NCBI GenBank assembly: GCA_012841305.1
Contig: DUVA01000181.1
Span: forward strand, 1-58,850
Source of the DNA: Bacillota bacterium
GTDB taxonomy: Bacteria; Bacillota; SHA-98; UBA4971
Direction: 5' to 3'
DNA length: 58,850 nt
In this document: piece by piece, positions 25,977 through 58,835 of the stretch
How positions within the stretch are numbered: position 1 is the first letter of the stretch
Layout: each line of letters opens with the position of its first letter
Made by a program: the position numbers and the translations under genes
The notes under the pieces: generated by a model
Told to the model about the DNA's origin: nothing
What the model saw: only the letters and a program-made list of their open reading frames with translations
Databases searched by the model: none

Positions 25977-26234
25977 ATGCTGGTCCGTGTTTCAGACCTA
26001 AGGGCCCGTGAAGTCGTAAATGTTGTAGACGGACGGAGGTTGGGGCCTATCTGTGACATGGAGATAGATCTTACTACAGGTCAGGTGACATCGATTATGG
26101 TGCCAGGCCCCTCCAAGTTCATGGGGATTCTCGGCCGCTACAATGATTACGTGATTCCTTGGTCAAGGATCAAGAGAATCGGAATGGACGTTATTCTCGT
26201 TGAGGCGAATGAGTACGCTGAGCCTGCCCAGTGA
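25977..26234 (+). CDS. ylmC: YlmC/YmxH-family sporulation protein (PRC barrel)
   Basis: VSDLRAREVVNVVDGRRLG...DMEIDLTTGQV..IMVPG...IPWSRIKRIGMDVILV. Confidence 0.85.
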   Translation: MLVRVSDLRAREVVNVVDGRRLGPICDMEIDLTTGQVTSIMVPGPSKFMGILGRYNDYVIPWSRIKRIGMDVILVEANEYAEPAQ

Positions 26235-43794: not shown

Positions 43795-45909
43795 CTATTG
43801 ATTGACAGGGAGTGGCTCAAACCTTACTTGGACGACTGTACCGCGCTTAACAGACGTTCCATGCTGCGGTTTCGAGCTCTTGGCTACCCCGGTGCCTTCC
43901 GCTTCCATACGAAGGCCCAAGTCTGACAGGATAACTGCGACATCTTTCATAGTCCTGCCTATGACATTGGGGACTACCACTTCACCCTCTACATTATAGG
44001 ATTCGGGTTTATCCAAGTAAAGAATGACAGTGGTGCCTCTTTGGACTTTAGCCGATGCGGCCGGTATCTGGTGAACAACTTCCACGCCTGTGCCTTTCGT
44101 TGAGACGTCAAGGCCGAATTCTGCTACAAGAAGTCTTGCTGCTTCATCAGGATTACAGCCAATGAGGTTCGGCACAATCACTTGTCGGCTTTCCGGGTCG
44201 CGTTCTTCCGTCTCCGGGGGCATGCTTGGCGAGATCTCCATATACCTTAGGACATCCTTCAATATGCCTTGAAATGCAGGAGCTGCAAGGACTCCGCCAT
44301 AGCTTATGCCGACATCCGGTTCATCCCAGATTACCAGGATCGCTATTTTCGGATCTTCAACAGGTGCGAATCCTAAGAAAGACGCAACTCGTTTGTCAGA
44401 GTATCTACCTGCTTCAGGCTTTTCTGCAGTTCCTGTCTTGCCTGCCACGCGATAGCCGGGAACCTTGGCCCTGAACCCGGATCCGTTGACTACTACTGAT
44501 TCCAGTATCAGAGAAAGCTCTTTTGATGTCTCTGCACTGATAACCTGTCTTATGGGATCTTTCTGAAATTCCTTTATAATGAACCCGTCAGGGTCCACAA
44601 TTTTCGAAACAAGGTGAGGGCGCACGAGTGTACCGCCGTTTGCGATTGCCGAAAGCGCAGACAACAACTGAATGGGGGTTACGGAAATTCCTTGGCCGAA
44701 GGAAATATTGGCGAGTTCCACAGGCCCGACATTCTTCGGGCGTTGGAGAAGGCCTGTAGCCTCACCCGGATAGTCAATTCCCAACGAGCTTCCAAGCCCA
44801 AATGCTTGAATATACTTATAAAAGCGCTCCTGCCCCAGCTTGGTGCCTAGTGTGGCGAACACGACGTTACACGAGTTTTCAGTGGCTTCAGTAAACGTTT
44901 GACTCCCGTGGCCTCCTGCAAGCCAACATCTTACGTACCTGTCACCAACCTTTATGAATCCTGGGTCGAAGAAGGTGTCATCAGGCCTGACAACACGTTC
45001 TTCAAGGGCGGCAGCGGCAGTGATTATCTTGAAAGTGGAACCCGGTTCATACGTGTCTGACACAATAGGGTTTCTGCGAAAGGAGTCAGGTTGTTCAAAA
45101 TAGCGGTTAGGATTGTACGCAGGCCGTGAAGCCATAGCCAGCACTGCCCCGGTCATCGGATCCATGGCCAGAATCATTCCCCGCTTTGCTTTGACCTCTG
45201 CCATCCCCTTATCAAGCTCGCGCTCGACGATATACTGAATTACTTCATCTATGGTGAGATACAGGTCATTGCCATCTACCGGTGGTATGAACTGTGTAAT
45301 TCCACCGGGGATTTCTTTCCCTGTGGCATCTCGTTCCGACCTCACCTGCCCTCTTGTTCCTTGGAGGAAGGAGTCATACTGGACTTCGATACCTTCGAGT
45401 CCCTGATTGTCTATTCCCACTATGCCCAGGACATGGGCTGCCAGACTGTCTTTTGGATAAAACCTTTGGCCCCGTTCTGCAAATCCGATTCCTTTGAGGT
45501 TGAGTTTTCTGAGAGTCGCCGCTTTCTCCGGATCCACTCTGCGGTCTATCCAAACTGTAGCCACAGGTTCCGAGAGCTTCTTCCTCACAGTCTCCACATC
45601 AAGCCCAAGTATTTTTGAGACCTGTTTTGCAGTGTCCAACGGGTCATCAATGTCGGCTGGGACTGCATACACTGCATCAGCGCTGACACTCACCGCAAGT
45701 TCTCTGCCTTTGACGTCTCGGATAGTCCCCCTGCGAGCGTCTACAGGCACGGGATAGAGCCGTTGATCCAGAGCCAGCTTCCGGTAATGCTCATTTTGGG
45801 CAACTTGTACCCAGAAAAGTCTCCCGATGAGGAAAAGGGTGACTGCTGCCCACATAAGAAAAAGCGAGCCTACCCTCTTTTTCATGGTAATGCTCGAGTG
45901 ATTAGACAC
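43795..45909 (-). CDS. Class B penicillin-binding protein (FtsI/SpoVD type) with two C-terminal PASTA domains
   Basis: N-terminal anchor, dimerisation domain, transpeptidase motifs STFK, SCN and KTGT, then two PASTA repeats (VPNLIG..., VPNVIG...). Confidence 0.9.
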   Translation of the reverse strand: MSNHSSITMKKRVGSLFLMWAAVTLFLIGRLFWVQVAQNEHYRKLALDQRLYPVPVDARRGTIRDVKGRELAVSVSADAVYAVPADIDDPLDTAKQVSKILGLDVETVRKKLSEPVATVWIDRRVDPEKAATLRKLNLKGIGFAERGQRFYPKDSLAAHVLGIVGIDNQGLEGIEVQYDSFLQGTRGQVRSERDATGKEIPGGITQFIPPVDGNDLYLTIDEVIQYIVERELDKGMAEVKAKRGMILAMDPMTGAVLAMASRPAYNPNRYFEQPDSFRRNPIVSDTYEPGSTFKIITAAAALEERVVRPDDTFFDPGFIKVGDRYVRCWLAGGHGSQTFTEATENSCNVVFATLGTKLGQERFYKYIQAFGLGSSLGIDYPGEATGLLQRPKNVGPVELANISFGQGISVTPIQLLSALSAIANGGTLVRPHLVSKIVDPDGFIIKEFQKDPIRQVISAETSKELSLILESVVVNGSGFRAKVPGYRVAGKTGTAEKPEAGRYSDKRVASFLGFAPVEDPKIAILVIWDEPDVGISYGGVLAAPAFQGILKDVLRYMEISPSMPPETEERDPESRQVIVPNLIGCNPDEAARLLVAEFGLDVSTKGTGVEVVHQIPAASAKVQRGTTVILYLDKPESYNVEGEVVVPNVIGRTMKDVAVILSDLGLRMEAEGTGVAKSSKPQHGTSVKRGTVVQVRFEPLPVNQ

Positions 45910-45932
45910 AGACTGTTCCCTGCCTTATGAGT

Positions 45933-46475
45933 CTATTTAGGTCTGACTCTCGGATGATCACAACTGGGAATATCGTAGAACCATCTTGCTACAAAGGGTG
46001 AAACAAGGCCTATGAGGATGTCTTCAGTTCGAGCTGAGACCTCAGCTACCAGCCCTGAAAGCTTCTCTGATGTTTTCCTCGGAGAAGCGTCAGCCACATC
46101 CAGGCGATTGGTTACAGATGCTACCATAATGAATTCGGTTTTCAGAGGTTTTGTCATACCCAGAGATATCATAGCTTCTCTTTCAATCCTGGCAAGCGAA
46201 CTCAGCTGTGCCATGGATAGACTAAGGCGATCGTATTCTGTCTGAGTAGCCGCAAGCGTTCGCTCAAGCACATGTAATCGATAACCGGTATCGATTACGT
46301 GAGCTCTCAGTGCCAGGCTGCCAATGAGGAGTCCGGTGATAAGCAGAGCCCCAAACATTCGTTTTCCGAGGCCGGCGCGTTTCCTTGATTTTCCGGCGGC
46401 CTCTCTTGGTTTTGCCGGAGCCTGTTTAATTCTTCCTTTTGATCTAGGTAACGACCTCGCTGCCGCTGGTACCAT
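45933..46475 (-). CDS. ftsL: Cell division protein FtsL
   Basis: Basic N-terminus, single TM segment, coiled coil, and IEREAMISLGM motif. GGGGAGGG RBS lies 8 nt before the ATG at 46475. The longer ORF overlapping rsmH was rejected. Confidence 0.75.
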   Translation of the reverse strand: MVPAAARSLPRSKGRIKQAPAKPREAAGKSRKRAGLGKRMFGALLITGLLIGSLALRAHVIDTGYRLHVLERTLAATQTEYDRLSLSMAQLSSLARIEREAMISLGMTKPLKTEFIMVASVTNRLDVADASPRKTSEKLSGLVAEVSARTEDILIGLVSPFVARWFYDIPSCDHPRVRPK

Positions 46476-46497
46476 CTGTATTCCCTCCCCGATTCCC

Positions 46498-47421
46498 TTA
46501 GAACTTCTCTGCTGCTCTAAGCTTTGCACTCCGGGACCTGGGATTTGAGATAACCTCTTCCTCACAGGGAACAATAGGCTTCTTAGTCAGAATTCGAAGA
46601 CAGCCTTGGTTCCTCGACCCGGACATCTCAAGAAACATCGTTTTCACAATTCTATCTTCCAGGGAGTGATAAGAGATAACTACCAATCTTCCCCCTGGGC
46701 AAAGGATTCTTATGGCCTGATCTAAACCTTCGTGCAATTCATCCAATTCATGGTTTACTGCAATCCTGAGAGCTTGAAACGTGCGACGTGCAGGATGAGG
46801 GCCCGACCTCCTGGCTCTTGCCGGGATGGCTGCTTTGACGATATCCACAAGCTCACCTGTGGTAACTATCGGTGCCTTCTCCCGTCGCCTCACTATGAAT
46901 TCAGCTATGCGCGCCGCCCAGCGTTCTTCGCCATAGAGCTTGAGTATTTCGGCAAGTTCTTCAGCCGGCAGGTTGTTTACGAGGTCTCGGGCAGACTCCC
47001 CTGTTCCCTGCCTCATTCGCATATCAAGTGGACCGTCTTCCATGTACGAGAAGCCTCTTTCAGGTTCGTCCAATTGATAACTGGAGACTCCGAGATCGAA
47101 TAGGATTCCGTCAACCTGCAAAACGTTAAGGCGCATCACGATATCCTGTAAGTCGCTGAAGTTTCCATGAACGAAAGTTACGGTATCGCTGAAGTGTTTC
47201 AGTTCTTGCTTTGCAGCTGAGATTGCGTCTCGGTCCCTGTCTATCCCTATGATTTGAGCCCCTGCACCGGCGAATTCCAGAAGACCGAGGGTGTGCCCTC
47301 CGCTTCCCAGCGTGCAGTCGATGTAGACCCCGCCTGGCTTAGGATTCATTAACCAGACTACTTCGTCTGGCATGACCGGGGTATGGTATTCTCTCTTGAT
47401 GTTTTCTGTCATTTGGTTCAT
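46498..47421 (-). CDS. rsmH: 16S rRNA (cytosine1402-N4)-methyltransferase
   Basis: HTPVM, DCTLGSGGH, FDLGVSS, SYHSLEDR. Confidence 0.95.
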   Translation of the reverse strand: MNQMTENIKREYHTPVMPDEVVWLMNPKPGGVYIDCTLGSGGHTLGLLEFAGAGAQIIGIDRDRDAISAAKQELKHFSDTVTFVHGNFSDLQDIVMRLNVLQVDGILFDLGVSSYQLDEPERGFSYMEDGPLDMRMRQGTGESARDLVNNLPAEELAEILKLYGEERWAARIAEFIVRRREKAPIVTTGELVDIVKAAIPARARRSGPHPARRTFQALRIAVNHELDELHEGLDQAIRILCPGGRLVVISYHSLEDRIVKTMFLEMSGSRNQGCLRILTKKPIVPCEEEVISNPRSRSAKLRAAEKF

Positions 47422-47876
47422 CAGCCTGTTCTTGTGACTTCTCGGTCTATACCACCGTGAGCCAGTTTCTCGGCTATCTCCTCATAGGATTCCTCTGCCA
47501 GGCCTCTGTAACCCGTCCAAACCTCCAGGCTCCATATCTCTATTCTGTTCATGACACCGATGACTATCGCATCTTTGGAGAGGCCTGCATATTCTCTGAG
47601 ATAAGCGGGAATGTTGATTCGCCCTTGCCTGTCCAGTTCGCATTCGCATGCCCCTGAGAAGAACAGTCTGCTATACGCTCGCGCGTCTCGCATTGTAAGG
47701 GGGAGTTTTGAGAACTCAGCAAGTTGTCTCTCCCATTCATCCCTCGGAAAGATGAACAGGCACTTGTCCAGCCCTCTGGTAGCAAAAAAGTGGTCGCCTA
47801 GGTCGTCCCTGAATTTGGCGGGGATAGCCAGTCTACCTTTATCATCAATATTATGTTCATAGGTCCCGATGAACAT
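47421..47876 (-). CDS. mraZ: Transcriptional regulator MraZ
   Basis: MFIGTYEHNIDDKGRLAIPAKFR and a second DxxGR repeat (DRQGRINIP). Confidence 0.9.
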   Translation of the reverse strand: MFIGTYEHNIDDKGRLAIPAKFRDDLGDHFFATRGLDKCLFIFPRDEWERQLAEFSKLPLTMRDARAYSRLFFSGACECELDRQGRINIPAYLREYAGLSKDAIVIGVMNRIEIWSLEVWTGYRGLAEESYEEIAEKLAHGGIDREVTRTG

Positions 47877-47891
47877 TGGTGCCTGCAAATT

Positions 47892-47917
47892 CACCACTTC
47901 TCCCCACTTTGCCCCAC
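47892..47917 (-). promoter_or_regulatory. Candidate MraZ operator: three direct GTGGG/GTGGT repeats with 10-bp periodicity
   Basis: Minus strand reads aatGTGGGGcaaaGTGGGGagaaGTGGTGaat, located 16-41 nt upstream of the mraZ ATG. Confidence 0.55.
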
Positions 47918-48113: not shown

Positions 48114-49973
48114 TCAGCCGACTACTTCGTCGTCTACCCGGAACAGCCAGATTTCGCTATGACCGTTCATGTGTGATATGACAGCTATTTGACCCCTGAT
48201 CGACCAGGTGAATTCAGCTATCCCAGGTGCGCTTATTATCTGTTTTAATCTACCGCCACCCGAAGGGCATACTGCAAGACCTGCGGGGTTTGTCATTAGC
48301 CATTGGCCGCAAGGCGAGATTTCCAGCAAATCTCCGGCTTTCTCAGCCAGAATTCGGTGCAAGCCGTTTGATCTGTCAAAGCAATAGACAGTCTTGTTCA
48401 TTATGTAGTAGATGGACATTCCATCAGGTGATGCCTGTATTGCGCTGATGGCGCCCGGTAGTTGGAACAGTTCATTTGTGGTGCTGCCCTCTGACAATAC
48501 CAGGACACTGGAGGTTTTGTTGCCCGCGGATTGCGTTTCCAGTAATGCAAAGAATTCATAAGATCTGGAAGGACATCTGAGAGCAAGCAGAGTTCCACTC
48601 TTGACGGAGTAGAGTGTCTCATGTGAACCTGACCTTGGATCAAAGACGCCTATTTTGTATCCTCCGCTACCTCGAGCGACGTACCTAAGCACAGCGTTGT
48701 CAGGGCGCCATTCAATCTCAGAAACGGTCCATCCAGAGCCTGCGCTTTCAGCCTTCTCTTTCTTGTCGTCGGCTCTGAATAAGATTTTCCCTTTACTGAG
48801 GTATGCGAAGCTGCTCGCGTTTTTCCCCGGTTCCGGACGTTCATCCGATGGAACGTCTGTAACCTCACTGATATCGCCTGTCATTGCATCAAGCACCTTA
48901 AGCCCTTTTCCTGCCGAGACAAAGAATACTTCGCTTCCGTCAGCTGCCCATGCCGGATTCTTCGAGCCTTTGGCGCCTGCATTGAATCTTGCTATTTCTG
49001 TAAGTGGAACACCGTTATCCACAGGGGCCAACGGAGGCCTTACAGGACAAGCGATAGCCGGTAGGTAGCATGTGGGTTGGTCTCCACATGTTCTGCTGCA
49101 GGTTGCCGCGGAACCGCATGTAGGCACGCAGGTGTAATAACCTTTACAGGTGGCGCTACATGTTGACATGCCCTGGCTGCATGTGGCTGCGCACGTAGGC
49201 GTAGGACTGCATGTTGTTCCGGTTGTAGCGTGTTCAATGTCGCACCCTGATTCACACGTGGGTTGACTCCCGCATGTCTCAGCGCAAGTTGCGCCACACG
49301 TCGCGCCACAAGTTGCACTACACGTTTCCGCGCAAGTGGGGCCGGTTCCACATGTCGCGCTACATGTCGCTGTACAAGTAGGGTTAGTTCCGCACGTCGC
49401 TGCACAAGTAGGATTGGTTCCACAGGTGGCTGCGCATGTGGGGTTAGTTCCGCAAGTCGCACCGCATGTGACTACGCACGTAGGCTTTATCCCGCAGGTT
49501 ACAGCGCATGTAGACCCGCACGTCAGCCCGCAAGTGGGTTTAGTTCCGCAAGTCGCTGAGCATGTGTCTGCGCAAGTAACTTTAGTTCCGCATGTTGCAG
49601 CGCATGTAACGAGACATGTAGATGAGCATGTAGACCCGCACGTCAGCCCGCAAGTAGGTTTAGTGCCGCATGTCACGAGACAGGTGGGCGCAGTAGTAGG
49701 AGCAGGGCATATCCCGGATGTAGCCATAGGTTCTACCTGGTCGTTTTTCTCCCCTGACGAGTCGCTCTCCGGAGTCTCATATTCACTTGATTCGATACGC
49801 CAATACGGATTCTGAAGACGCTTATCCGCGAGTTCCGCCGAGTAAGCGAAAAGAGGTGAATCCATGACTTCCTCGGTAGCCTTCACCTTTGCGGCGGAAG
49901 TCCAAAACCCTACTACAAGCATGCATGAAAGCACTAGTACTACAGTCAAGAACCTTACTCTTTGTCTATTCAT
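48114..49973 (-). CDS. Secreted/anchored protein: signal-anchor, acidic linker, ~220-aa Thr-Cys ladder (about 45 Cys), Pro-rich hinge, TolB-like beta-propeller
   Basis: The ATG at 49973 lies 8 nt after AAGGAGGG, inside the end of the upstream gene (TGAAATG junction). N-terminus is MNRQRVRFLTVVLVLSCMLVVGF. The repeats are TCGTKPTCGLTCGSTC... The C-terminal part has propeller-like blades (ADGSEVFFVS, SPDGMSIYYI, SPCGQWLM). Confidence 0.8.
   Translation of the reverse strand: MNRQRVRFLTVVLVLSCMLVVGFWTSAAKVKATEEVMDSPLFAYSAELADKRLQNPYWRIESSEYETPESDSSGEKNDQVEPMATSGICPAPTTAPTCLVTCGTKPTCGLTCGSTCSSTCLVTCAATCGTKVTCADTCSATCGTKPTCGLTCGSTCAVTCGIKPTCVVTCGATCGTNPTCAATCGTNPTCAATCGTNPTCTATCSATCGTGPTCAETCSATCGATCGATCAETCGSQPTCESGCDIEHATTGTTCSPTPTCAATCSQGMSTCSATCKGYYTCVPTCGSAATCSRTCGDQPTCYLPAIACPVRPPLAPVDNGVPLTEIARFNAGAKGSKNPAWAADGSEVFFVSAGKGLKVLDAMTGDISEVTDVPSDERPEPGKNASSFAYLSKGKILFRADDKKEKAESAGSGWTVSEIEWRPDNAVLRYVARGSGGYKIGVFDPRSGSHETLYSVKSGTLLALRCPSRSYEFFALLETQSAGNKTSSVLVLSEGSTTNELFQLPGAISAIQASPDGMSIYYIMNKTVYCFDRSNGLHRILAEKAGDLLEISPCGQWLMTNPAGLAVCPSGGGRLKQIISAPGIAEFTWSIRGQIAVISHMNGHSEIWLFRVDDEVVG
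49047..49709 (-). repeat. In-frame tandem repeats encoding the Thr-Cys ladder (12-, 30- and 120-nt periodicities)
   Basis: For example, CGTNPTCAAT occurs three times (about 49380-49470), and a near-identical ~47-nt block occurs at about 49507-49553 and 49627-49675. Confidence 0.8.
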
Positions 49974-49974
49974 T

Positions 49975-52545
49975 TCATTTTCCCTCCTTTCCTTTTTCAA
50001 TCAGCCGAAACTCTAAGTCGTAGATGGACTTAAGGGTCGAGTCAGGTATCGTGGAAGTCGTTCCCATGAGTTCATCAGAGAAAAGTCTTGACGCTGCAAA
50101 TACAAAGACCTTACCTCGTCCGATTTGTTTTTCTGCAGCCACCGTCCTTTCCAGGCTATCACCCACTTGCAGATTACCGCCGGCTACTTGGTAAGTGAGG
50201 ACATGTCGCTGGATTGGTTCTCCGTCAAGGCTGATGACAGATGCGATTTTGGGTTCTTTGACGGAAAGTCCGAAATTCCGCAAGAATTCATTGGCCAATC
50301 TGTCCGAGGATCCGTTTCCATGCATAACTAACAGGTATCCACCGGATTCCACGTATTGCCTTATCATATGATATTCACGATTTGAGAAACGTTTAGCAAT
50401 ATTCATAAGCACGACGACGTCGCATTCCAGCGCCTCACGAAGAGATGCAACCCTGGGGCGGCCTTCTACCCGCTGAATCCAGGTATAGAATGTATGGTAG
50501 GCTTTGGATGAATCAAGGAATATTGTCTCCTCCGGCAGCAACATCAAGGTATGATCTCGTTCAAAAGCTACTTCCAGAGTATCGCTGCGAATCTTGGGGG
50601 GATGCCGATAAGCGGCAGAGGTGAGGCTCTGACAGGACCATATGGCCAGATAGATACCTATGAGCGCTGCAAAGGCCATAGAAGGAGCAAGTGGTGCGAA
50701 AGCACGGCCTCTTCTGCGTATAAGCAGGAAGAGCCCGCATAGCAGGACAGCCGCAGCACCTAGAAGAACTGCCGGTAACCAGGTCAGGTATGCATTGCGA
50801 TTGAGCCAACTGATCATGCCTATGAGGAGTTCCCATTTGCCCGGGATAAACATGAAGAAGTTGGACCACACTGTGCTGTCAGTGAATGCTACTACCCTTC
50901 CCTTTCCTGATGAAGCTGCAGCAGCCTGAATCAAGAGTCCATATTCCTTATCCAGATCCGGCCTGTCAGTGGCGAAGAAGTTCTCATGACTATAGTCAAG
51001 ATATAGACTCTTCACTCCATAACCTGTGATTACGCCGGAGGCAAAGGGTGATATCCCCATTGAGCAGGAAGTCGCAAATAGAAATCTCGGAAGAAGTATT
51101 GCCGCAGGGTGACGGAATATGCTACGGTCTTCGTATATTGAGAGGCCTCCGGTTCTGAGATCGTATGTGCCGTCATACTTAAAGCGTAATCCAAATCTCT
51201 CTGCAACAGGATTTAAGTACGTACTGGTTCCAAAGACATTTGTATGATCACCTACTAGGAAAAGCCCTCCGCCTTTCTTGACAAATTCGCAAATAGCGTC
51301 GATTTCTTCTTCGTTATATGCCTCAGTGGGTGTTTTCAACATCAAGATGTCACAAGTCCCGAGGAGTTCACGGGAGATCGGTGAGTCAAGGTTTTTTGCG
51401 ACGTCATAGTAATCTCGAAGATATGCTGCAAGGGAATAGTAATTGTATCCGGAATCTTCTCCGTACCATAGAGTATCGTATGGCCTGGTAGTCTTCTCCC
51501 AGATAGTGTGCTTTTCATCTATGAGGATTCTGCCCCGTTTCTTGATTCCCGGATCTCGAAATCCAAAGGCAAACACCAAAAGAAATGTGATTACACAGGC
51601 AAGAGCTTGAGGAGCCCACTGTTGGGATTGATGTTTGCCTATTTTGGCAGCTCCTTCATGCCGTTTCTTCTTTGGCGAATCTTGTGTGGTTCTTATTGGA
51701 TCTGCGGTATCTTGCGTATTATAGGTATGTGCAAATCCTTTCCAGGCCGGCATTAGGGCGAGAGGCAAGAAGCTTCCTAATACCCATGCAGGCAACCAGA
51801 ATATGTCATAGTCCCGGTATGAGACGGTAACAAGCAGAAGAAACACGTATCGTGCCAGGAAGAATGCAGCCAGAATGCTGAGGACTTCCCCGGTTTCCCG
51901 CATTATATTGATTAGGTTTCTGTTATGTTTCTTTCTTAGGATGACCTTCATGGTGATCCATCCGGCAAATACCATAATCATGAGGAGCAGGTTCAGTTTC
52001 TCCGACGTGGTGGCTAAAGTGAACTCATATCCCGGTGTGCGAATGAAAACACCATTTGCGCAAGGAGCCGCAGTTACTGAAAATATTCGAAGAAGCCAAC
52101 AGATGACCGGGTCTAAGACTTCTATGTGGTGATGACGGGACTCAAAGGCGACGAAAGACGGAAGCACGAGGGCTTGCACAGTCATGACAATTCCTGCAGT
52201 GGCAAAGCCTGCGGCAATCCTACGTAGACGATTTGCAAGAAGAGTCAAGACCAGGCCGCATGCAATGAGACAAAGGCCCAGATTTTCAGGGAACGGAATG
52301 TGCGTCGAGATAAGCACCAGCGGGACAGCGCATAGGACGTACTGCTTGAGTATGGTCCCCGAGGTATCCGCGCCTCTCGAAGAAGGGGATGAGACGCAAA
52401 ACAATACCAGCCCCATGAGCAAGGTTAACGTTCCAAGGCCACGTGAGGGGCTGTAATATGGTAGAAGCAATACCCAACTGAGTGAAAGGCTGACTATGCC
52501 TACCCATAAACCTATGGCGCTCCGTTTCCCTATCTCAATATCCAT
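49975..52545 (-). CDS. 856-aa polytopic membrane protein with two GldG/DUF4350-like extracytoplasmic alpha/beta domains (paralogue 2)
   Basis: About 10 TM segments, then domain (KKGGGLFLVGDHTNVFG...GKGRVVAFTDSTVWSN), 2 TM, then a second domain (ESGGYLLVMHGNG...GRGKVFVFAASRLFSD). Confidence 0.75.
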   Translation of the reverse strand: MDIEIGKRSAIGLWVGIVSLSLSWVLLLPYYSPSRGLGTLTLLMGLVLFCVSSPSSRGADTSGTILKQYVLCAVPLVLISTHIPFPENLGLCLIACGLVLTLLANRLRRIAAGFATAGIVMTVQALVLPSFVAFESRHHHIEVLDPVICWLLRIFSVTAAPCANGVFIRTPGYEFTLATTSEKLNLLLMIMVFAGWITMKVILRKKHNRNLINIMRETGEVLSILAAFFLARYVFLLLVTVSYRDYDIFWLPAWVLGSFLPLALMPAWKGFAHTYNTQDTADPIRTTQDSPKKKRHEGAAKIGKHQSQQWAPQALACVITFLLVFAFGFRDPGIKKRGRILIDEKHTIWEKTTRPYDTLWYGEDSGYNYYSLAAYLRDYYDVAKNLDSPISRELLGTCDILMLKTPTEAYNEEEIDAICEFVKKGGGLFLVGDHTNVFGTSTYLNPVAERFGLRFKYDGTYDLRTGGLSIYEDRSIFRHPAAILLPRFLFATSCSMGISPFASGVITGYGVKSLYLDYSHENFFATDRPDLDKEYGLLIQAAAASSGKGRVVAFTDSTVWSNFFMFIPGKWELLIGMISWLNRNAYLTWLPAVLLGAAAVLLCGLFLLIRRRGRAFAPLAPSMAFAALIGIYLAIWSCQSLTSAAYRHPPKIRSDTLEVAFERDHTLMLLPEETIFLDSSKAYHTFYTWIQRVEGRPRVASLREALECDVVVLMNIAKRFSNREYHMIRQYVESGGYLLVMHGNGSSDRLANEFLRNFGLSVKEPKIASVISLDGEPIQRHVLTYQVAGGNLQVGDSLERTVAAEKQIGRGKVFVFAASRLFSDELMGTTSTIPDSTLKSIYDLEFRLIEKGKEGK

Positions 52546-52572: not shown

Positions 52573-54948
52573 TTAAAATGCTATGCTTCTTAAGAACTCG
52601 ATGTTAGCGAGGTTGACTTCTGACAGAGTCTCAAGATTCATGTTTTCCAGGAACATAGAGTCGCCTACCACCGTGACCCTGCCCTGCCCTACTTGCCTGC
52701 AGACCGCGACAGGCCTTCCCCACGCTGAGACTAATGTAATTGCATTCTGACGGGAAGTTGATACAGGCCAGCCTTCACGAAATTTTAAGACACCCCAGGT
52801 TGTCTCTGCGTGAAATCCCCCAAGAGGCACAGGTTCCACCCTAAATCCAAATCTCTCTGCAAGGTTCCTTGTTCCTCGGCTCTCCTCCCAGCCTGTGGCG
52901 ATTACAAGTCTGCCTCCGTCTTCTGCATACTTCTCAAGAAAGTCTATTTCCTTGCTGCTGTATGATTGTTGAGCCCCGATAATGAACACGGTCTCAGCCC
53001 GATACAACACTTCTTCATCAAACTGTTCCATTTGAACAGGAAGAAGCTGGTTTCTTAAGATATTTTGATATAATCCGCCTATGCCTCGCACCCCCCATAG
53101 TTCAGAAGAGAAGGACGGCGAGTGTGACCGGTCTACTACAGCAGTTGCGCCTTGAAATCTCACCTTCTTTGGGGCACAGAACGAGACAGGTATTTCAAGC
53201 AGGATGAATCCGGCTATCGCCGCTGCTATGAGGCTACATAAGATGGTTATTCCCAGCGCAGTCCGGCGAGGCGCCGCCTTGCTTGTGGCTCGCCAGGCCA
53301 GAATGGCAGAGGCTGTAATACAGGCCACAAAGGCGAAGTGAGGCAGCCATCCGGAAGGTGATGCTCTCCTCTGCGAAAGCCAGGAAAATACATTATCAAG
53401 AAAATCGTGGGATAAGGCTAGCGCTCCATTTTGAAAAGGAGATGTATCACCGAAGACCAGGACTTTTCCGCGCCCGAATGACCCTTCAGCTACAACAACT
53501 AGATCCCCCAGACGCTCACCGGGACTGTATTTCAGATCTCCTAAGTATCCTGAATTGCAGTTCATGAGATCTGCTGCGTCAGCAAATCCACAAGTTGCGA
53601 CAACTACAGGCTTACCCGGTAACTTTACCCTGAGCGATGCACCGGTTCCGATTTGAGTCTGGCTTTCATCTATAATGTTCGTGGTGATTGGGTGTCTGCT
53701 GAACATTAGATTGCCTCTACCCCACCCCTCCTCCAAAATACTCCGGGCAGAGTCGAAGCTCACGCCGATGCCTGCAGGCACCATAACACAGTCAAACGGG
53801 TGAGATTCGTCGGGATAGAACGTATGATCCGCGAGGACAAGCAGAGACCCTCCGTGATAGACAAAGTCTTCCAAGGTTTTCTGTTGATCTTCGTTCAAGT
53901 TATCTCTGACATTAATTCCGACAACTATCTGCACACCGGATAAGTCCTGGGATGAGATCTCGCCCCAGGATACATCATACCCTGTTCCCTCAAGATATAC
54001 AGGAAGCCATCCAAATGAAGGCCTGAACTTGTCATTGAAATCATGAGGCGAGGTAGGCTCAAAGTCTACGTCCGGAGCAGCTAGGAACATTACTGACTTA
54101 TGAATCTGTCCCACTGCCATGGGAAGTGCGCCTACGACACACAGCAGTAGAGCGATAACTACGCCTGCAAGTCCTTTCACTCGGAACGCCGGGTTCCAAA
54201 CCAGGTAATAGCTGTTAGAGGAAGCATAGAAGCCTACCAAGACGGAGAAGCAAACAGCCAGGCATAGTACAAAGGGAACATAGCCCAGTCCGTCCAAGCC
54301 CAGGGTCTTGGCGAATATGAGTAAACAGGTAAGGTAAGAAGCCGTGCCTATAAGGAAATAAGTGACTAACATGCCTGGATTGCGCTGATGGCTTAGGGTA
54401 AAAATCACTAGACATACGAGGGTATAGAGCAACATCAGATCAAGGCTAAGATAGGTAGGCCCGTACACCCCAGGCCTTCCCGATAACACCGTAACTATCC
54501 TTGAGATAAATCTGTTGAGTCCCAGTATTTCAGCGTACTGAATGGAAAGGGCGTCCAGAGAGAGGGCCATAGCAGATCCAGTTACGGCTATGGCAAACCA
54601 CAAGACAGGGTACGCCTTTTCATCCCTTGCTGCTATGGACAGGACGAGAGGAATTGTCATGACGAACATAGTCACGTATAGTTTCCCGGTGTAGCTGAGT
54701 CTCTTGGCAGAAAGAAGGAGGAGCGCTGCTAAGATGCAAGTAAGGAAAGGGATTTTGGTTTTGTTGAAGGGAGTCTTCCTCACTAATATGTACATGCACA
54801 GCAAGAACCAGAGGGCTTCCAAGGCATGAGAAAACATGGTTATTCTACATGCAATTACCGACGTGGCAAGGAAGGTACAAAGAGAGCCCCATTCGATGCG
54901 GAATTGCCGCATCACAGGGCTTTCACTTTTTTGAGGAAGCAACGCCAT
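52573..54948 (-). CDS. 791-aa polytopic membrane protein with two GldG/DUF4350-like extracytoplasmic alpha/beta domains (paralogue 1)
   Basis: About 9 TM segments, then domain (YHGGSLLVLADHTFYP...GRGKVLVFGDTSPFQN), 2 TM, then a second domain (EDGGRLVIATGWEE...GQGRVTVVGDSMFLEN). Confidence 0.75.
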   Translation of the reverse strand: MALLPQKSESPVMRQFRIEWGSLCTFLATSVIACRITMFSHALEALWFLLCMYILVRKTPFNKTKIPFLTCILAALLLLSAKRLSYTGKLYVTMFVMTIPLVLSIAARDEKAYPVLWFAIAVTGSAMALSLDALSIQYAEILGLNRFISRIVTVLSGRPGVYGPTYLSLDLMLLYTLVCLVIFTLSHQRNPGMLVTYFLIGTASYLTCLLIFAKTLGLDGLGYVPFVLCLAVCFSVLVGFYASSNSYYLVWNPAFRVKGLAGVVIALLLCVVGALPMAVGQIHKSVMFLAAPDVDFEPTSPHDFNDKFRPSFGWLPVYLEGTGYDVSWGEISSQDLSGVQIVVGINVRDNLNEDQQKTLEDFVYHGGSLLVLADHTFYPDESHPFDCVMVPAGIGVSFDSARSILEEGWGRGNLMFSRHPITTNIIDESQTQIGTGASLRVKLPGKPVVVATCGFADAADLMNCNSGYLGDLKYSPGERLGDLVVVAEGSFGRGKVLVFGDTSPFQNGALALSHDFLDNVFSWLSQRRASPSGWLPHFAFVACITASAILAWRATSKAAPRRTALGITILCSLIAAAIAGFILLEIPVSFCAPKKVRFQGATAVVDRSHSPSFSSELWGVRGIGGLYQNILRNQLLPVQMEQFDEEVLYRAETVFIIGAQQSYSSKEIDFLEKYAEDGGRLVIATGWEESRGTRNLAERFGFRVEPVPLGGFHAETTWGVLKFREGWPVSTSRQNAITLVSAWGRPVAVCRQVGQGRVTVVGDSMFLENMNLETLSEVNLANIEFLRSIAF

Positions 54949-55043: not shown

Positions 55044-55072
55044 ATCATACTACCCGTGAATTGTCCTGTAAA
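55044..55072 (-). promoter_or_regulatory. Sigma-A-type promoter of the three-gene envelope operon
   Basis: Minus strand reads TTTACA-17 nt-TATGAT, about 95 nt upstream of the ATG at 54948. Confidence 0.6.
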
Positions 55073-55165: not shown

Positions 55166-55708
55166 TTATGAAGCCTTGTTTGAACCTGTTTCTCTCTCAT
55201 TGATATTTCTTTCAATTGCCATGAGAAAGAGTTTCTTAGGATTCCTCTCTTTGGCAATTTGCCTGGTCATTACCCAATTCTTGCGGAATCCGCACCTCTC
55301 GAAGCACCTTACCGCCCGTAGGTTGTCTGCCAGTACCCGAAGGTAAATCCGGTCCAGTCTTGTGGTGGAAAACACATAGTCCAGTAAGGACGAAATCGCG
55401 TCATGCCCGTAACCTTTACCGAGGTACTTCGGGTGTCCTATACGAACCACGAGCTCAGCTTCACTTCTGCGCCAGTTGATTTCTACAAGGCCAATGTCTC
55501 CAATTAGCGTGCCATCTTCTGCCTCTATTGCAAACATTCTTGTGGTGCGAGCATTTATCCGAGACATGTATTCCTCGCTTACTGTGAGGCGCCTGCTAGA
55601 ATGTTCAAATGCCGCAGTCGCGATGTGCTGCGCTGCTTCCCACTGACATATGACTTCCAAATCGGCGCCGTTTAGCGGACGAAGTAAAATCTTTTCGCCT
55701 TTAATCAC
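55166..55708 (-). CDS. GNAT-family N-acetyltransferase (RimJ/RimL-like)
   Basis: ILLRPL..., IGDIGLVEINW, GKGYGHDAISSLLDYVF, NLRAVRCFERCGF. GTG start at 55708 lies 8 nt after AGAGGTG. The longer ORF into spoVS was rejected. Confidence 0.75.
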   Translation of the reverse strand: MIKGEKILLRPLNGADLEVICQWEAAQHIATAAFEHSSRRLTVSEEYMSRINARTTRMFAIEAEDGTLIGDIGLVEINWRRSEAELVVRIGHPKYLGKGYGHDAISSLLDYVFSTTRLDRIYLRVLADNLRAVRCFERCGFRKNWVMTRQIAKERNPKKLFLMAIERNINERETGSNKAS

Positions 55709-55839
55709 CTGCGTGACACCTCTTCTTCCAGTCCACCACCCCACTTGTCGCAAAAAGACTTCGCCCCTGACCCCTCTGATACCTTTAAGTATTTTTATCC
55801 GCTTTCGGCATCCATGACCATGTATTATTTCCTGTGAGC

Positions 55840-56100
55840 TCACCTTGGCTGTACAATCAACTTGATCGCGGTCCTTTCTTCCCCGTCAATCTGCACATCA
55901 GTAAATGCAGGAATCATCACCAGATCTATGCCACTTGGCGCCACAAAGCCCCTGGCAATAGCAACAGCCTTAACAGCCTGATTCAGGGCGGCCGCGCCGA
56001 CTGCCTGAACTTCAGCACCTCCTCGTTCTCTCACAACTCCTGCCAACGCACCTGCCACGGAATTGGGATTTGACTTAGCAGACACTTTGAGGACTTCCAT
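55840..56100 (-). CDS. spoVS: Stage V sporulation protein S
   Basis: MEVLKVSAKSNPNSVAGALAGV...AVGAAALNQAVKAVAIARGF, 86 aa. Confidence 0.95.
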   Translation of the reverse strand: MEVLKVSAKSNPNSVAGALAGVVRERGGAEVQAVGAAALNQAVKAVAIARGFVAPSGIDLVMIPAFTDVQIDGEERTAIKLIVQPR

Positions 56101-56460
56101 ACTAAATTCCTCCTTGTATGGCCTGGAATGCCGGTTATGGATGAACTATTATATACCAAGGTATTACATTCCTGCTATATTTTCATATACAGTTAAAAAA
56201 ACGTGGAAGGGAAATACTTAAGTATGAGTTCATGAGACCGTTGGACTTCGCCAGTAACCACCAGTTTCGCCGAAGACGTCGACCAGTCTCTGCGATTCGA
56301 GAGGGCTGTGTTAACATAATGTGGGAAAGAGCAACGGTCTCGTTCATTAGTTTTTGCTCGTTTTCTCAGGACTTGGGTTGGCGGTGATTGCAACGAGGGG
56401 TGTCAAAATTCGGCCACTAGCCTACGGGCCGGATTTTGTCAAGGCAACCCGCTTGGGGAG

Positions 56461-57263
56461 CAGGAATTCCGCAAGCGCCGTTTTTCCTGGATATATATTC
56501 GAACCAGCACTCTGGTTATGGCCGTCAGATTAAATGGGAGTCTTACCCATCTATGAGAGAGCATATAGGGCCCCCTTTCCCCTACCCGGGCGGAAGCCTT
56601 ATTGACAATCCCAAAGCTCTTTTAGGGGGGCTCAGTCGAATGGCTTGCCCGGAGAGCCATTCCGGTTTTGCTTCATGATTCTCCGCGTCTTTTGCGGGGC
56701 GATAGTTCGCGTGGTCGAAAAACAACCACCGTGAGGCTCTTTGGTGGTTGATTCTCAACCATCTTTTTCAGCGCATTCGCTTGGATGGTTGAGAATCGAC
56801 CATCTTAGGGCTTGTTAATGGTTGATTATCGACCACGATCATGCCTCCAGGGGGCAGAATATAGAACACCTCATCACAGAGAATCCCTTCACATGAAGAT
56901 TGTGGATACAAAATCGACCACATTTTTAGAAAAGGTGAACGAAAATCTACCAGCTTTTCCAATACCGTGGTAGAAAACCTTCCACCTGAGCCTCAAAGAG
57001 CTATCAAAATCCCTCTTCAGCCCAAAAATGTGGTCGAAAATCAACCACTATTGCCGTTTGGGGTGGTCGAAAACCGACCATTTTCCGGCTTTTTGCTGCA
57101 GAAATCCCAAAAGGTGGTTGAAAGTGAACCGGCGTTTTGAAAAGAGTGGTTGAAAATCGACCATGTTCATGTTAACCGTAAGCGCCAAACAGCGCCCACT
57201 GCTCCCTTGCAGTGTTCATGCTGGTTCACCACATGATACACTCTATGGCTTGCGGAATTCCTG
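56461..57263. mobile_element. 803-bp non-coding TIR-bounded insertion (MITE-like) with target-site duplication
   Basis: Perfect 16-bp inverted termini CAGGAATTCCGCAAGC/GCTTGCGGAATTCCTG. Flanking direct repeat is GCTTGGGG(AG)/GCTTGGGG(G). The empty site is seen in copy B (CGCTTGGGGAGCCGTCCCC). No ORF with an RBS lies inside. Confidence 0.8.
56711..57164. repeat. Array of 11 imperfect 19-20-bp palindromes, GTGGTYGA-N3-TCRACCAC
   Basis: Copies at 56711, 56744, 56785, 56818, 56902, 56935, 56967, 57030, 57063, 57114 and 57146. Six neighbour spacings are 32-33 bp. Confidence 0.85.
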
Positions 57264-57385
57264 GCTTGGGGGCCGTCCCCGAGTGCAACACCGGCAACCC
57301 TCAACGGTACGTATACTTTCTGGAACTGGCGATTGCTTACGGTGTTCTGCTTGGATGCACTTTTGAGGCGGCAAATAGACTGGTG

Positions 57386-58171
57386 TCAATCGATGGCTGC
57401 TTCTCTAATCCTCTGAATCGCTTTAGTCTTGCCGGTACCGTAATCAACAGTGACCACCGCACCACACAGCTCAGTCGGCCCTGACGCAATCTGAAACTGC
57501 CTTGGCAGTCCTGTTAGGAAACGGTCTATTATGATATCAGTTCTTACTCCCAGAACTGAGTTTACCGGGCCTGTCATACCCAAATCAGATATATAACCTG
57601 TACCTTCCGGGAGAATTCTCTCATCTGCAGTCTGGACGTGGGTATGTGTCCCGACAATGCACGCAACCCGGCCATCGAGGAACCAACCCATAGCGATTTT
57701 CTCAGAGGTGGCTTCAGCATGGAAGTCCACGACAATTAAGTCACACTTCTCTGATAGCTCAGTCACAATAGCGTCAGCGACTCGAAAAGGACAGTCCAGG
57801 GGGGACATGAACACACGGCCGATCAAATTCACGACACCAAGTCTGATTCCGTTTGAAAGGTTTATGACAGTAGCTCCCTTGCCTGGAGCACCAGGGGGGT
57901 AGTTGGCAGGACGCAGAATGCGCGTGTTATCTTCAAGGAACCTGTAGAGTTCTTTCTTTTGCCAGACATGGTTCCCGGTTGTCAGAACCGAAATTCCAAG
58001 GCCAAACAACTCTTCAGCAGTATCCTGAGTAAGCCCAAGGCCTCCTGCTGCATTCTCACCATTGGCTATTATGGCGTCAGGCTTATAAGTATTGACAAGT
58101 TCAGGTAAAGCGGTCTTCACTGCACGCCGCCCGGGTCTGCCTACGATATCACCTATAAAAAGAAGATTCAA
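57386..58171 (-). CDS. ymdB: YmdB-family metallophosphoesterase (2',3'-cyclic-nucleotide phosphodiesterase, TIGR00282-like)
   Basis: LNLLFIGDIVGRPGR, GENAAGG, GNHVW, DFHAEATSEK, GTHTHVQTADE. TTG start at 58171 lies 7 nt after AGGAGG. Confidence 0.9.
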   Translation of the reverse strand: MNLLFIGDIVGRPGRRAVKTALPELVNTYKPDAIIANGENAAGGLGLTQDTAEELFGLGISVLTTGNHVWQKKELYRFLEDNTRILRPANYPPGAPGKGATVINLSNGIRLGVVNLIGRVFMSPLDCPFRVADAIVTELSEKCDLIVVDFHAEATSEKIAMGWFLDGRVACIVGTHTHVQTADERILPEGTGYISDLGMTGPVNSVLGVRTDIIIDRFLTGLPRQFQIASGPTELCGAVVTVDYGTGKTKAIQRIREAAID

Positions 58172-58190
58172 CCGGTGTCCTCCTAGAGCC

Positions 58191-58835
58191 TTAAGATTTC
58201 GTGCGCTCAGTCTGCTTATTGAAAACAAGAACGCGTCCTTCTTCGCGAAATCCTATTAGCTTTCTTTGCTGCACAGACTCTCTCAAATCGTCCAGCATAG
58301 TCTCGATCATTTCATCTTGATATACCAATTCTTCTTCGAATTCGCCTTCTTCGCTGTTCCCCTCACTTATCAGTTCAGAACCCAGCGCGTATCTGGCAAG
58401 TTCAATTATGAGAGATATTTCCTCTTGGGTCAGGGTGGCAACATCCCGAGATATCTCCACAATAGATACACTGTCAAACTCCAGTCGCTCTGCTTTGACC
58501 CTTGGAGCTCCCCTATGCACCAGAGAGGCGTACACTTCCACACTCTCAAAGAGTTTGTGGCAGAAGGCATCCCACAATCGGTCGGAAATAGAAGATGATG
58601 TCATGAACGTAAACTTAAGAATCTTGCCTTCCGGAACGAAGTTTACCGTCGCTATTTCCGGATAGCGAACCAGTATGGAAATGAGAAGGCTTACACTGTT
58701 TGCCGTGCTGTCAGAAATAGCTTCCAATTGGGTATCAGCGTCATCCACTGTGACCACCCCTCCTTGCGTCCTGTTCTCGCAGCTCAACTGAGAGTTCGCC
58801 ATAGGGGCAAAAACTCCTGCTAAGACAGTTCTCAT
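58191..58835 (-). CDS. Hypothetical acidic protein (no family recognised); start uncertain and close to the window edge
   Basis: Long ORF ending 19 nt upstream of the ymdB start. No motif recognised. It occupies the position where rny lies in Bacillus but is not RNase Y-like. Confidence 0.45.
   Translation of the reverse strand: MRTVLAGVFAPMANSQLSCENRTQGGVVTVDDADTQLEAISDSTANSVSLLISILVRYPEIATVNFVPEGKILKFTFMTSSSISDRLWDAFCHKLFESVEVYASLVHRGAPRVKAERLEFDSVSIVEISRDVATLTQEEISLIIELARYALGSELISEGNSEEGEFEEELVYQDEMIETMLDDLRESVQQRKLIGFREEGRVLVFNKQTERTKS

Follow-up and report, generated by a model that had tools for sequence, protein, structure and literature searches.

The Thr-Cys repeat is a real domain of an almost certainly exported 619-aa protein, which belongs to a rare and apparently undescribed three-gene module. 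The module consists of two large membrane proteins (A and B) and a cysteine-rich client with a conserved N-terminal tag, and it was found in anaerobic bacteria and in methane-producing archaea. The window is a 58,850-nt stretch of contig DUVA01000181.1 from a Bacillota bacterium (GenBank assembly GCA_012841305.1). The client gene is the last of a predicted three-gene operon, after the two paralogous ~800-aa polytopic membrane proteins, each with two GIFT/DUF4350 domains inferred to face outside. The features are collected in Table 1.

Table 1. Coordinates of the module and related features in the window.
Feature	Position	Strand	Description
Client gene	48114..49973	-	619 aa; ATG at 49973, stop at 48114-48116
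Putative Sec-type signal peptide or N-terminal anchor	49878..49973	-	About residues 1-32; MNRQRVR, a hydrophobic core, then AKVKA|T
Conserved N-terminal tag	49815..49859	-	SPLFAYSAELADKRL, residues 39-53
Thr-Cys ladder domain	49047..49709	-	Residues 89-309; 221 residues with 45 Cys in C-x-x-T and C-G-T-x-P-T units
30-nt tandem repeat	49366..49460	-	3.2 copies, 78% matches; encodes GTNPTCAATC three times
120-nt (40-aa) unit	49554..49673	-	Absent from the near-identical allele P0002
49-nt direct repeats	49506-49554 and 49626-49674	-	Bound the 120-nt unit; 120 nt apart, 94% identical
C-terminal domain	48117..49016	-	About 300 aa; possible TolB/PD40-type beta-propeller (weak match)
Shine-Dalgarno sequence	49982..49989	-	AAGGAGGG, 8 nt upstream of the client ATG, inside the last codons of gene B
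Partner B	49975..52545	-	856 aa; about 9 membrane helices, GIFT/DUF4350 domain 1, a two-helix membrane hairpin, then GIFT domain 2; stop codon at 49975-49977
Partner A	52573..54948	-	791 aa; distant paralogue of B with the same architecture
Promoter-like site	55044..55072	-	TTTACA-17-TATGAT, upstream of gene A
Unassigned rSAM/SPASM gene	26191-27600		About 20 kb from the module

The extreme Thr-Cys ladder reported in the preliminary description was confirmed. The ladder also contains 56 Thr. Thr precedes 42 of the 45 Cys, and 40 of the 44 Cys-Cys spacings are 4 (27 times) or 6 (13 times). In 10,000 shuffles of the same 221 residues, the Thr-before-Cys count averaged 11.4 (maximum 22), and the count of 4-or-6 spacings averaged 7.5 (maximum 17). 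The repeat units are C-[AGS]-[AVS]-T-C and C-G-T-x-P-T-C. All four Thr codons and both Cys codons are used, and the DNA copies are only 60-80% identical while the T and C positions are kept, which points to selection on the protein. Two details of the preliminary description did not hold. The spacing does not alternate strictly between 4 and 6, as there are runs of up to five consecutive 4s. The 30-nt and ~120-nt DNA repeats, described as near-identical, are not all so; only the one pair of 49-nt copies reaches 94% identity. However, the suggested length polymorphism is real. The close orthologue P0002 matches the window protein at 540 of 543 aligned residues, but lacks exactly 40 aa, in frame, which is one 120-nt unit. 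Other close orthologues are P0003 (76%) and the proteins of loci L007 and L008. Intact orthologues have 9 to about 85 ladder Cys. The apparent frameshift in the relative L011 is a run of N in the assembly.

The interpretation given in the preliminary description was partly supported. The repeat is genuine, its number is polymorphic between relatives, and the protein is almost certainly exported, as judged by eye from its N-terminal sequence. Database scans found nothing significant for the ladder: no Pfam or NCBIfam model and no PDB sequence matched. AlphaFold2 modelling of the full client, with a 12-sequence alignment, gave pLDDT 34 and pTM 0.21, so that no fold can be inferred for the ladder or the C-terminal domain. 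The loose resemblance suggested to antifreeze-type TCT solenoids does not hold, as a 12-residue TCT solenoid does not fit. Across 46 family members, Cys counts are odd in 29 and even in 17; although parity is only an indirect test, an all-paired, disulfide-stapled solenoid gets no support. The three functions proposed there (metal rail, disulfide fibre, and modification substrate) could not be told apart by computation. A match to a catalogued Cys-rich repeat family with an assigned role had been named as a refuting condition. Relatives do carry such a family (PF27846/TIGR04114, 'tSAM_targ_Cxxx'), but it is not known to have a tested role, and the window protein itself does not reach its threshold. 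The most informative feature, the conserved tag together with the conserved pair of membrane proteins, had been missed. For the C-terminal domain, the window protein matched TIGR02800 at E 0.0097, far below the cut-off, and TolB in the PDB at E 3e-4; the orthologue in L007 matched Pfam PD40 at E 2.3e-8, above the cut-off.

The client gene is co-oriented and tightly packed with A and B. The B stop codon ends 1 nt before the client ATG, which suggests translational coupling. The promoter-like site is a consensus match only, and the number of such sites in the region is no higher than in shuffled sequence. The A-B-client arrangement was seen in the window and in loci L002, L004, L005, L006, L088, and L089. 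The trio recurs in Bacillota, Coriobacteriia, Bacteroidota, Latescibacterota, Verrucomicrobiota, and the Methanotrichaceae and Thermoplasmatota archaea; the Methanothrix homologues include the OY821645.1 locus (L031). A and B form separate orthologous groups. Across 85 loci, the only recurrent gene families are A/B and Cys-rich clients. Thr-Cys-rich ORFs make up 36 of 236 ORFs within 1.5 kb of A/B, against 5 of 325 further away (Fisher p = 5e-10). The ladder is rare overall, with 29 hits in 1.84 billion representative proteins. However, some ladder proteins are not next to A/B (L087), and some A/B loci lack a client (L081). A GNAT acetyltransferase gene sits next to A in the window and occurs near the module in L089/L090 and L004, but a phmmer search found it in no other locus, and it was treated as coincidence. 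An ABC ATPase lies nearby in only 5 loci, and is not a general partner. An Rfam scan of the window gave no hits. The window encodes NrdG and lysine 2,3-aminomutase, which points to an anaerobe; the relatives come from uncultured organisms assembled from metagenomes.

The tag was present in 62 distinct clients from many phyla. The family consensus is S-P-L-[FY]-x-x-[RSA]-hydrophobic-x-[QE]-A-hydrophobic-x-x-[LM], where the hydrophobic residue is L/V/Y/M at the first position and I/A/V/L at the second; in shorter form, it is SPL[FY]xx[RS]..[QE]A..L. This is the spacing of an amphipathic helix, and the motif lies a few residues after the signal peptide; a tagged client was defined by the motif within about 10-20 residues after it. 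The clients always carry the SPL[FY] tag and are Cys-rich, but the repeat type, the repeat number (9 to about 144 Cys), and the C-terminal anchor (none, propeller, CWB2, SLH, T9SS tail, or membrane helix) vary freely. Many family members are only a tag plus a ladder, 130-280 aa long. The tagged clients include Verrucomicrobia clients that have only 1-4 'YYWCxxCKxYH' units and no ladder, and 'TCD'-type clients rich in Asp and His. The shared features are therefore Cys chemistry plus the tag, not a particular fold. Across the family, 70% of the Cys-Cys spacings are 4, and the residue before Cys is Thr in 84% and Ser in only 5%.

The AlphaFold2 model of B is confident (pLDDT 87.4), and the topology was inferred from K/R-rich loops. 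The soluble domains of A and B match ABC_transp_aux, DUF4350, and IFT52_GIFT, and Foldseek matched B to IFT52 and OST48-like domains. More than 200 homologues of B were found, none with a functional name. The residues [DE]433-H434-T435, H479, D556, and N562 are conserved in both A and B, and the first GIFT domain of B has many invariant polar residues. The membrane domain of A/B had no match: Foldseek against the PDB listed only GIFT-domain hits among the 50 shown, a Pfam search at E <= 10 gave nothing credible, and a PDB profile search gave nothing. Literature searches on Cxxx repeats, DUF4350, and cysteine-rich or sheath proteins of Methanothrix found no description of this family or module. 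Two papers on Methanothrix electron transfer (PMC10470525, PMC12072023) do not mention such proteins, and Makarova et al. 2015 (PMC5898192) discusses a different, single-pass DUF4350 family.

The sequence and synteny analyses show the tight packing of the client gene with A and B, the recurrence of the trio, the shared tag, and the Cys-rich but otherwise variable nature of the clients; the outward orientation of the GIFT domains and every functional role are inferred. Our tentative explanation, held with less than even confidence, is that the ladder is an extracytoplasmic thiolate array handled by A/B. In this view, A/B would recognize the tag helix at the membrane surface after Sec export. 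The ladder would be the working part, an extended and probably beta-rich strand system with Cys on one face and Thr on the other, which would bind thiophilic metal ions to capture, store, or sequester them in sulfidic anoxic habitats. The conserved His/Asp residues in the first GIFT domain of both A and B, if they form a cluster, might serve as the hand-off or loading site. The members that are only a tag plus a ladder are consistent with the ladder as the working part, and the Cys parity shows no all-paired disulfide signal. However, there is no direct evidence for metal binding, and no metal transporter, chaperone, or regulator recurs near the module. The near-invariant Thr before each Cys is not explained by metal binding, and fits a beta-structural, glycosylation, or Thr-Cys cross-linking role better. 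Surface anchors such as CWB2, SLH, and T9SS tails place the mature protein away from the membrane; any contact with A/B would then be transient, which fits processing as well as metal hand-off.

A structural cross-linker is possible but less likely. The ladder would be a Cys/Thr/Gly/Ala/Pro-rich rod like the keratin-associated proteins, which stiffens or cements the cell envelope through intermolecular disulfide (or metal-bridged) links, or simply spaces the C-terminal domain away from the wall, with A/B as the assembly platform. The composition resembles high-sulfur matrix proteins, and ladders are fused to classic wall and surface anchors (CWB2, SLH, and T9SS tails). Repeat number varies widely between close relatives, as is typical of stalks. 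The dominant spacings are both even, which would keep Cys on one face of a beta-strand, and the odd or even Cys counts are compatible with intermolecular links. However, the ladder-only members have nothing to project, and Verrucomicrobia clients with as few as one CxxC unit cannot build a fibre. The hosts are also inferred to live in reducing, sulfidic settings, where disulfides are disfavoured.

A glycosylated stalk is unlikely. A/B would be a two-subunit, lipid-linked-sugar-dependent glycosyltransferase-like machine, which recognizes the SPLF tag as a leader and O-glycosylates the ladder Thr residues (or S-glycosylates Cys) after export, giving a mucin-like rod. The predicted architecture, about 9 membrane helices followed by large outward-facing domains, resembles the GT-C enzymes, and Foldseek matched the GIFT domain to an OST48-like chain of the human oligosaccharyltransferase complex (8b6l_N, E 1e-5). 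The preference for Thr over Ser before Cys, the invariant polar residues of B, and the transient contact implied by wall anchors or T9SS tails are also compatible with an enzyme. However, the membrane domain shows no sequence or fold similarity to any GT-C or other glycosyltransferase, and no sugar-activation or flippase genes recur nearby. This reading does not explain why Cys is as conserved as Thr, nor the Thr-poor CxxC clients.

A RiPP-like modification target is more doubtful still. The ladder would be cross-linked before export by a radical SAM/SPASM maturase encoded elsewhere, for example through Cys-Thr thioethers. Methanotrichaceae relatives carry PF27846, the protein P0005 weakly matches TIGR04117 (E 0.006), and the protein P0195 weakly matches TIGR04114 (17.4 bits, against a cut-off of 20 bits). 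The C-x-x-T unit puts Thr three residues after each Cys, a geometry used by thioether peptides. However, the window protein gave no hit to these models even at E <= 1, and the precomputed Pfam annotation of its cluster is empty. The radical SAM genes of the window are AblA, NrdG, and the unassigned rSAM/SPASM, all 20 kb or more away, and the last scores far below every maturase cut-off. No radical SAM gene lies within 7-10 kb of the module in any of about 85 loci, and a radical SAM partner was rejected as part of the module. The clients are also large proteins with Sec signal peptides, not small cytoplasmic peptides.

A more speculative and very unlikely possibility is that the A/B pair plus the SPLF tag is a previously undescribed extracytoplasmic maturation and docking system shared by Bacteria and Archaea, whose ladders are metal-loaded to form extended metal-thiolate or metal-sulfide chains. 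Such surface rails might store scarce Ni, Co, or Fe, or even conduct electrons between syntrophic partners such as Methanothrix and fermenting Bacillota in methanogenic consortia. The absence of any specific function (a fast-evolving low-complexity surface repeat or an ORF-calling artefact) is largely refuted, because although alternative frames of the repeat are open and copy number is unstable, the T and C positions are conserved across bacterial and archaeal phyla despite DNA divergence, the tag and the synteny with A/B are conserved, and orthologues are intact.

If the module is what it appears to be, it defines a new cross-domain system of an N-terminal tag, two dedicated membrane proteins, and very Cys-rich surface clients. 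It occurs in organisms that dominate anaerobic digesters and sediments, including Methanothrix, a major source of biogenic methane. It offers candidates for how strict anaerobes obtain or buffer thiophilic trace metals in sulfide-rich water, what builds their unusually resistant envelopes, and whether non-cytochrome, non-pilus surface components take part in interspecies electron transfer. Even in the modest case, more than 200 'hypothetical/DUF4350' proteins and a set of unannotated Cys-ladder proteins would gain a shared context and a testable hypothesis, and the radical-SAM-target description attached to the related Cxxx repeat families would need qualifying for these proteins.

The closest catalogued entries are TIGR04114/PF27846 and TIGR04117 ('Syntroph_Cxxx', a Cys-Xaa-Xaa-Xaa repeat described as a radical SAM target). 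They share tandem repeats with Cys at every fourth residue, and Methanotrichaceae members of the same client family are annotated as PF27846. These families are not known to have an experimentally tested role. The window protein does not reach either model; it is an exported multidomain protein, whereas the TIGR04117 profile is 98 positions long, and it is paired with two GIFT-domain membrane proteins and not with a radical SAM/SPASM maturase. The Tenebrio molitor-type beta-helical antifreeze proteins (TCTxSxxCxxAx) share a Thr-Cys dipeptide ladder with small residues, and a beta-structure with Cys on one face and Thr on the other is possible. However, the period here is 4 or 6, not 12, there is no TCT triplet, Cys counts show no bias towards even numbers, and the context is an anaerobic prokaryote with dedicated membrane partners. 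The metallothioneins share very high Cys content (20%), variable length, and possibly capacity-type thiolate binding of soft metals, which for the ladder is only inferred. The ladder has no CC, CxC, or CxxC motifs and no Cys-Cys spacing shorter than 4; its spacing is a rigid 4 or 6 with Thr before Cys, and the proteins are extracytoplasmic, up to about 144 Cys long, and fused to surface anchors, the window protein being 619 aa and not a small protein. The high-sulfur keratin-associated proteins and the Dictyostelium Cys-rich extracellular matrix repeats are Cys/Thr/Ser/Pro/Gly-rich short tandem repeats in extracellular structural material that is cross-linked through Cys. They are eukaryotic, share no homology, and have no tag-plus-membrane-partner system, and disulfide chemistry is questionable in sulfidic anoxic habitats. 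The dedicated sorting systems (exosortase/PEP-CTERM, archaeosortase/PGF-CTERM, and rhombosortase/GlyGly-CTERM) also pair a short conserved tag on diverse surface proteins with a dedicated multi-pass membrane protein across many phyla. Here the tag is N-terminal, directly after a Sec signal peptide, the partners are two GIFT/DUF4350 proteins with no similarity to sortases, and any cleavage or attachment would be by analogy only. Finally, the soluble domains of A and B resemble the GldG, IFT52, and OST48 GIFT-domain proteins. GldG is an accessory subunit of an ABC transporter, whereas A and B carry their own orphan membrane domain of about 9 helices, occur as a tandem paralogue pair, and lack a regular ABC partner.

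The Thr-Cys ladder lies within an ORF on the minus strand. The true start of this ORF is almost certainly an internal ATG, which gives a protein of 619 aa. A Shine-Dalgarno sequence (AAGGAGGG) sits 8 nt upstream of this ATG, and the stop codon of the preceding gene ends 1 nt before it. Residues 89-309 contain 45 Cys and 56 Thr in 221 residues, and Thr precedes 42 of the 45 Cys. Of the 44 Cys-Cys spacings, 27 are 4 and 13 are 6. In 10,000 shuffles of these residues, the Thr-before-Cys count never exceeded 22 (mean 11.4), and the 4-or-6 spacing count never exceeded 17 (mean 7.5). The ladder observed in the preliminary description is therefore confirmed, and is far beyond chance. The units are C-[AGS]-[AVS]-T and C-G-T-x-P-T. 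However, two details of that description were wrong. The spacing was said to alternate strictly between 4 and 6, but runs of five consecutive 4s occur; the tandem DNA copies were said to be near-identical, but most are only 60-80% identical. The conserved Thr and Cys use all four Thr codons and both Cys codons; the pattern is therefore maintained at the protein level and is not just recent DNA duplication. The coordinates of the features are summarized in the table.

Coordinates of the ladder gene, its partner genes and other features (window positions unless a locus is named)
Feature	Position	Strand
ORF containing the ladder, as listed	48114-50000	minus
Start codon (ATG) of the 619-aa protein	49973	
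Shine-Dalgarno sequence	49982-49989	
Stop codon of the preceding gene	49975-49977	
Thr-Cys ladder (residues 89-309)	49047-49709	minus
120-nt unit absent from P0002	49554-49673	
Partner gene A	52573-54948	
Partner gene B	49975-52545	
GNAT (Acetyltransf_3) gene	55166-55843	minus
SpoVS-like gene	55840-56100	minus
Region without ORF of 90 aa or more	56100-57386	
ymdB	57386-58228	
Cell-division/cell-wall gene cluster	43795-47897	minus
Orphan radical SAM/SPASM gene	26191-27600	minus
Ladder protein with C-terminal CCP[HN]N, locus L032	9681-10844	
Ladder protein with C-terminal CCP[HN]N, locus L049	9794-10777	
T9SS-tailed ladder protein and C25 peptidase, locus L087	9001-13700	

The ladder is polymorphic in length. 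The metagenomic protein P0002 matches the window protein at 540 of 543 aligned residues, but lacks exactly 40 residues. The missing piece is one 120-nt unit, which is bounded by 49-nt direct repeats of 94% identity. An orthologue with 76% identity (P0003) has only 9 ladder Cys, whereas the orthologues in two other Bacillota MAG loci (L007 and L008) have about 85 and about 81 ladder Cys, respectively, and are intact. The apparent frame break in the relative at locus L011 is a run of N in the assembly.

The N-terminus consists of MNRQRVR, a hydrophobic core, and AKVKA|T, which reads as a Sec signal peptide when judged by eye. Residues 39-53 are SPLFAYSAELADKRL, and the ladder follows at residues 89-309. 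The last ~300 residues have weak similarity to the TolB propeller (TIGR02800, E 0.0097; TolB in the PDB, E 3e-4); the L007 orthologue hits Pfam PD40 above its cut-off. No Pfam family matched the window protein.

A word-indexed search identified 13 proteins. An exhaustive HMMER search of 1.84 billion representatives, using residues 1-330, identified only 29; the ladder is therefore rare. The real relatives share a signal peptide, an S/T-P-L-F/Y motif, and a Thr-Cys ladder, although their C-termini differ widely. Many have no further domain and are only 130-280 aa long. Others carry CWB2 wall-binding repeats, an SLH domain, a T9SS sorting tail, a LamG-like domain, a GH25-like region with a C-terminal membrane helix (read from the sequence of relative P0017 only), or, in Methanotrichaceae, a domain that appears beta-sandwich-like from reading the sequence. 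One Methanotrichaceae-type subfamily (at loci L032 and L049, and proteins P0014 and P0015) ends in a conserved C-terminal CCP[HN]N motif. Across 60 family members, 70% of the ladder spacings are 4, 12% are 6, and 8% are 5; 84% of the ladder Cys follow Thr. The longest ladder has about 143 Cys (L056, a Methanothrix MAG).

The main result is the conserved neighbourhood. The two genes directly upstream, A and B, encode polytopic membrane proteins of 791 and 856 aa, with ABC_transp_aux, DUF4350, and IFT52_GIFT domains. Every relative with enough flanking DNA shows the same pair next to the ladder gene, namely loci L002/L003, L004, L005, the archaeal-type L006 (in divergent orientation), L088, and L089/L090. 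BLAST separated clear A and B orthologous groups, which are only distant paralogues of each other. A scan of GTDB species genomes with a B alignment returned 80 loci, all from uncultured genomes, belonging to Bacillota, Nitrospirota, KSB1, Bacteroidota, Latescibacterota, Eisenbacteria, Gemmatimonadota, Coriobacteriia, Planctomycetota, Verrucomicrobiota, Thermoplasmatota, and Methanotrichaceae. There are exceptions: one Methanotrichaceae locus (L081) has A/B but no client at the usual site, and one T9SS-tailed ladder protein (P0176, at L087) lies not next to A/B but next to a gingipain-like C25 peptidase that also has a FlgD_ig domain. Clustering of all the neighbouring ORFs found only four recurrent families: A/B (165 ORFs in 85 loci), the Thr-Cys ladder family (25 loci), a Verrucomicrobia family (11 loci), and giant PVC T-x-C-P ladder proteins (9 loci). 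Thr-Cys-rich ORFs make up 36 of 236 ORFs within 1.5 kb of A/B, against 5 of 325 further away (p = 5e-10).

The giant proteins, of about 1400 aa, sit next to A/B homologues in Planctomycetota and Verrucomicrobiota (L030, L034, L052, L055, L059, L062, L068, L069, and L075), and are built from an 8-residue T-x-C-P-x-x-x ladder (for example CPAVETRCPAVKTQCP). The SPLF tag was not found in them. They may be relevant to the Cys/Pro-rich envelopes reported for planctomycetes. In the window, a GNAT gene lies directly upstream of A. GNAT genes also flank the module in L089/L090 and L004, but in none of the other loci, and this is probably coincidence. Further along, between a SpoVS-like gene and ymdB, about 1.3 kb contains no ORF of 90 aa or more and no Rfam match, which is unusually long for non-coding sequence in this densely packed window. 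Directly downstream of the ladder gene begins a standard cell-division/cell-wall cluster, with mraZ, rsmH, an ftsL-like gene, and a PASTA-domain penicillin-binding protein; no terminator-like site separates it from the ladder gene.

The Verrucomicrobia proteins encoded directly after B (L059, L062, L063, L066-L069, L074, L077, and L079) have no ladder. They begin with the same motif (GGSPLYxxAVxExxxGL), followed by 1-4 YYWCxxCKxYH units and Pro/Ala-rich linkers, and gave only sub-threshold zinc-knuckle-type Pfam hits. The Latescibacterota, Eisenbacteria, and Gemmatimonadota clients are TCD-type Cys/Asp/His-rich proteins, which begin SS(P)AFxxxLxxAVxRLEG. Alignment of 62 distinct clients gave the consensus S-P-L-[FY]-x-x-[RSA]-hydrophobic-x-[QE]-A-hydrophobic-x-x-[LM], which has the spacing of an amphipathic helix. 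All of the clients share this tag and cysteine-richness, but not a particular repeat or fold.

B has more than 200 homologues, all annotated as hypothetical, DUF4350, or GldG family. AlphaFold2 with 53 sequences gave a confident model (pLDDT 87.4, pTM 0.87), in which about nine membrane helices with a small beta-sheet insert are followed by GIFT domain 1, a long two-helix membrane hairpin, and GIFT domain 2. Two K/R-rich loops (residues 276-304, and RRRGR at about 612-618) most likely face the cytoplasm, which would place both GIFT domains outside. Foldseek matched only the GIFT domains, to IFT52, GH42M-type domains, and an OST48-like chain; searches of the membrane domain found no Pfam or PDB relative. 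The first GIFT domain of B carries many invariant polar residues, of which [DE]433-H434-T435, H479, D556, and N562 are also conserved in A.

Structure prediction of the client gave only a poor model (pLDDT 34), from which no fold can be assigned. Three observations bear on function. First, the dominant spacings, 4 and 6, are both even, which would keep all Cys on one face and all Thr on the other face of an extended beta-strand; this is a suggestion only, since 8% of the family spacings are 5. Second, Cys counts are odd in 29 and even in 17 family members; this parity, which is only an indirect test, gives no support to an all-paired disulfide solenoid. Third, many members are ladder-only, and the same system also serves clients with a single CxxC-H unit. 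We therefore take the Cys chemistry itself to be the function. Our preferred reading, which remains tentative, is that the ladder might be an exported thiolate array that binds soft metals and is loaded or unloaded by the His/Asp sites of A/B. The near-invariant Thr is not explained by this reading. The repeat pattern, the recurrent A/B pair, and the shared tag are results of the sequence comparisons, whereas the outward orientation of the GIFT domains, the metal binding, and the role of A/B in loading are inferred. Among the alternatives, a cross-linked structural rod is possible but unlikely; a leader-guided extracytoplasmic glycosylation substrate is less likely, and a radical-SAM-type modification target is doubtful. 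A functionless repeat is very improbable. The framing in the preliminary description is partly supported.

Literature searches found no description of the ladder family, the tag, or the A/B pairing. The Methanotrichaceae relatives are tagged as PF27846 (tSAM_targ_Cxxx_rpt) in the precomputed annotation. The matching NCBIfam model, TIGR04114, is an 18-residue Cys-rich repeat, and TIGR04117 is described as a Cys-Xaa-Xaa-Xaa repeat radical SAM target protein. The window protein did not hit these models, even at E <= 1, and no radical SAM gene recurs near the module. The three radical SAM genes of the window, AblA, NrdG, and an orphan radical SAM/SPASM protein, are all 20 kb or more away. The best NCBIfam hits of the orphan (469 aa), to NirJ2, AhbD, and various peptide maturases, are all far below their cut-offs, and it may mark an unrelated peptide-modification or cofactor locus. 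The closest catalogued relatives in kind are the Cxxx-repeat proteins, which are themselves uncharacterised; the window protein differs from them in falling outside their models, and it sits in what appears to be an undescribed, cross-domain three-gene module.
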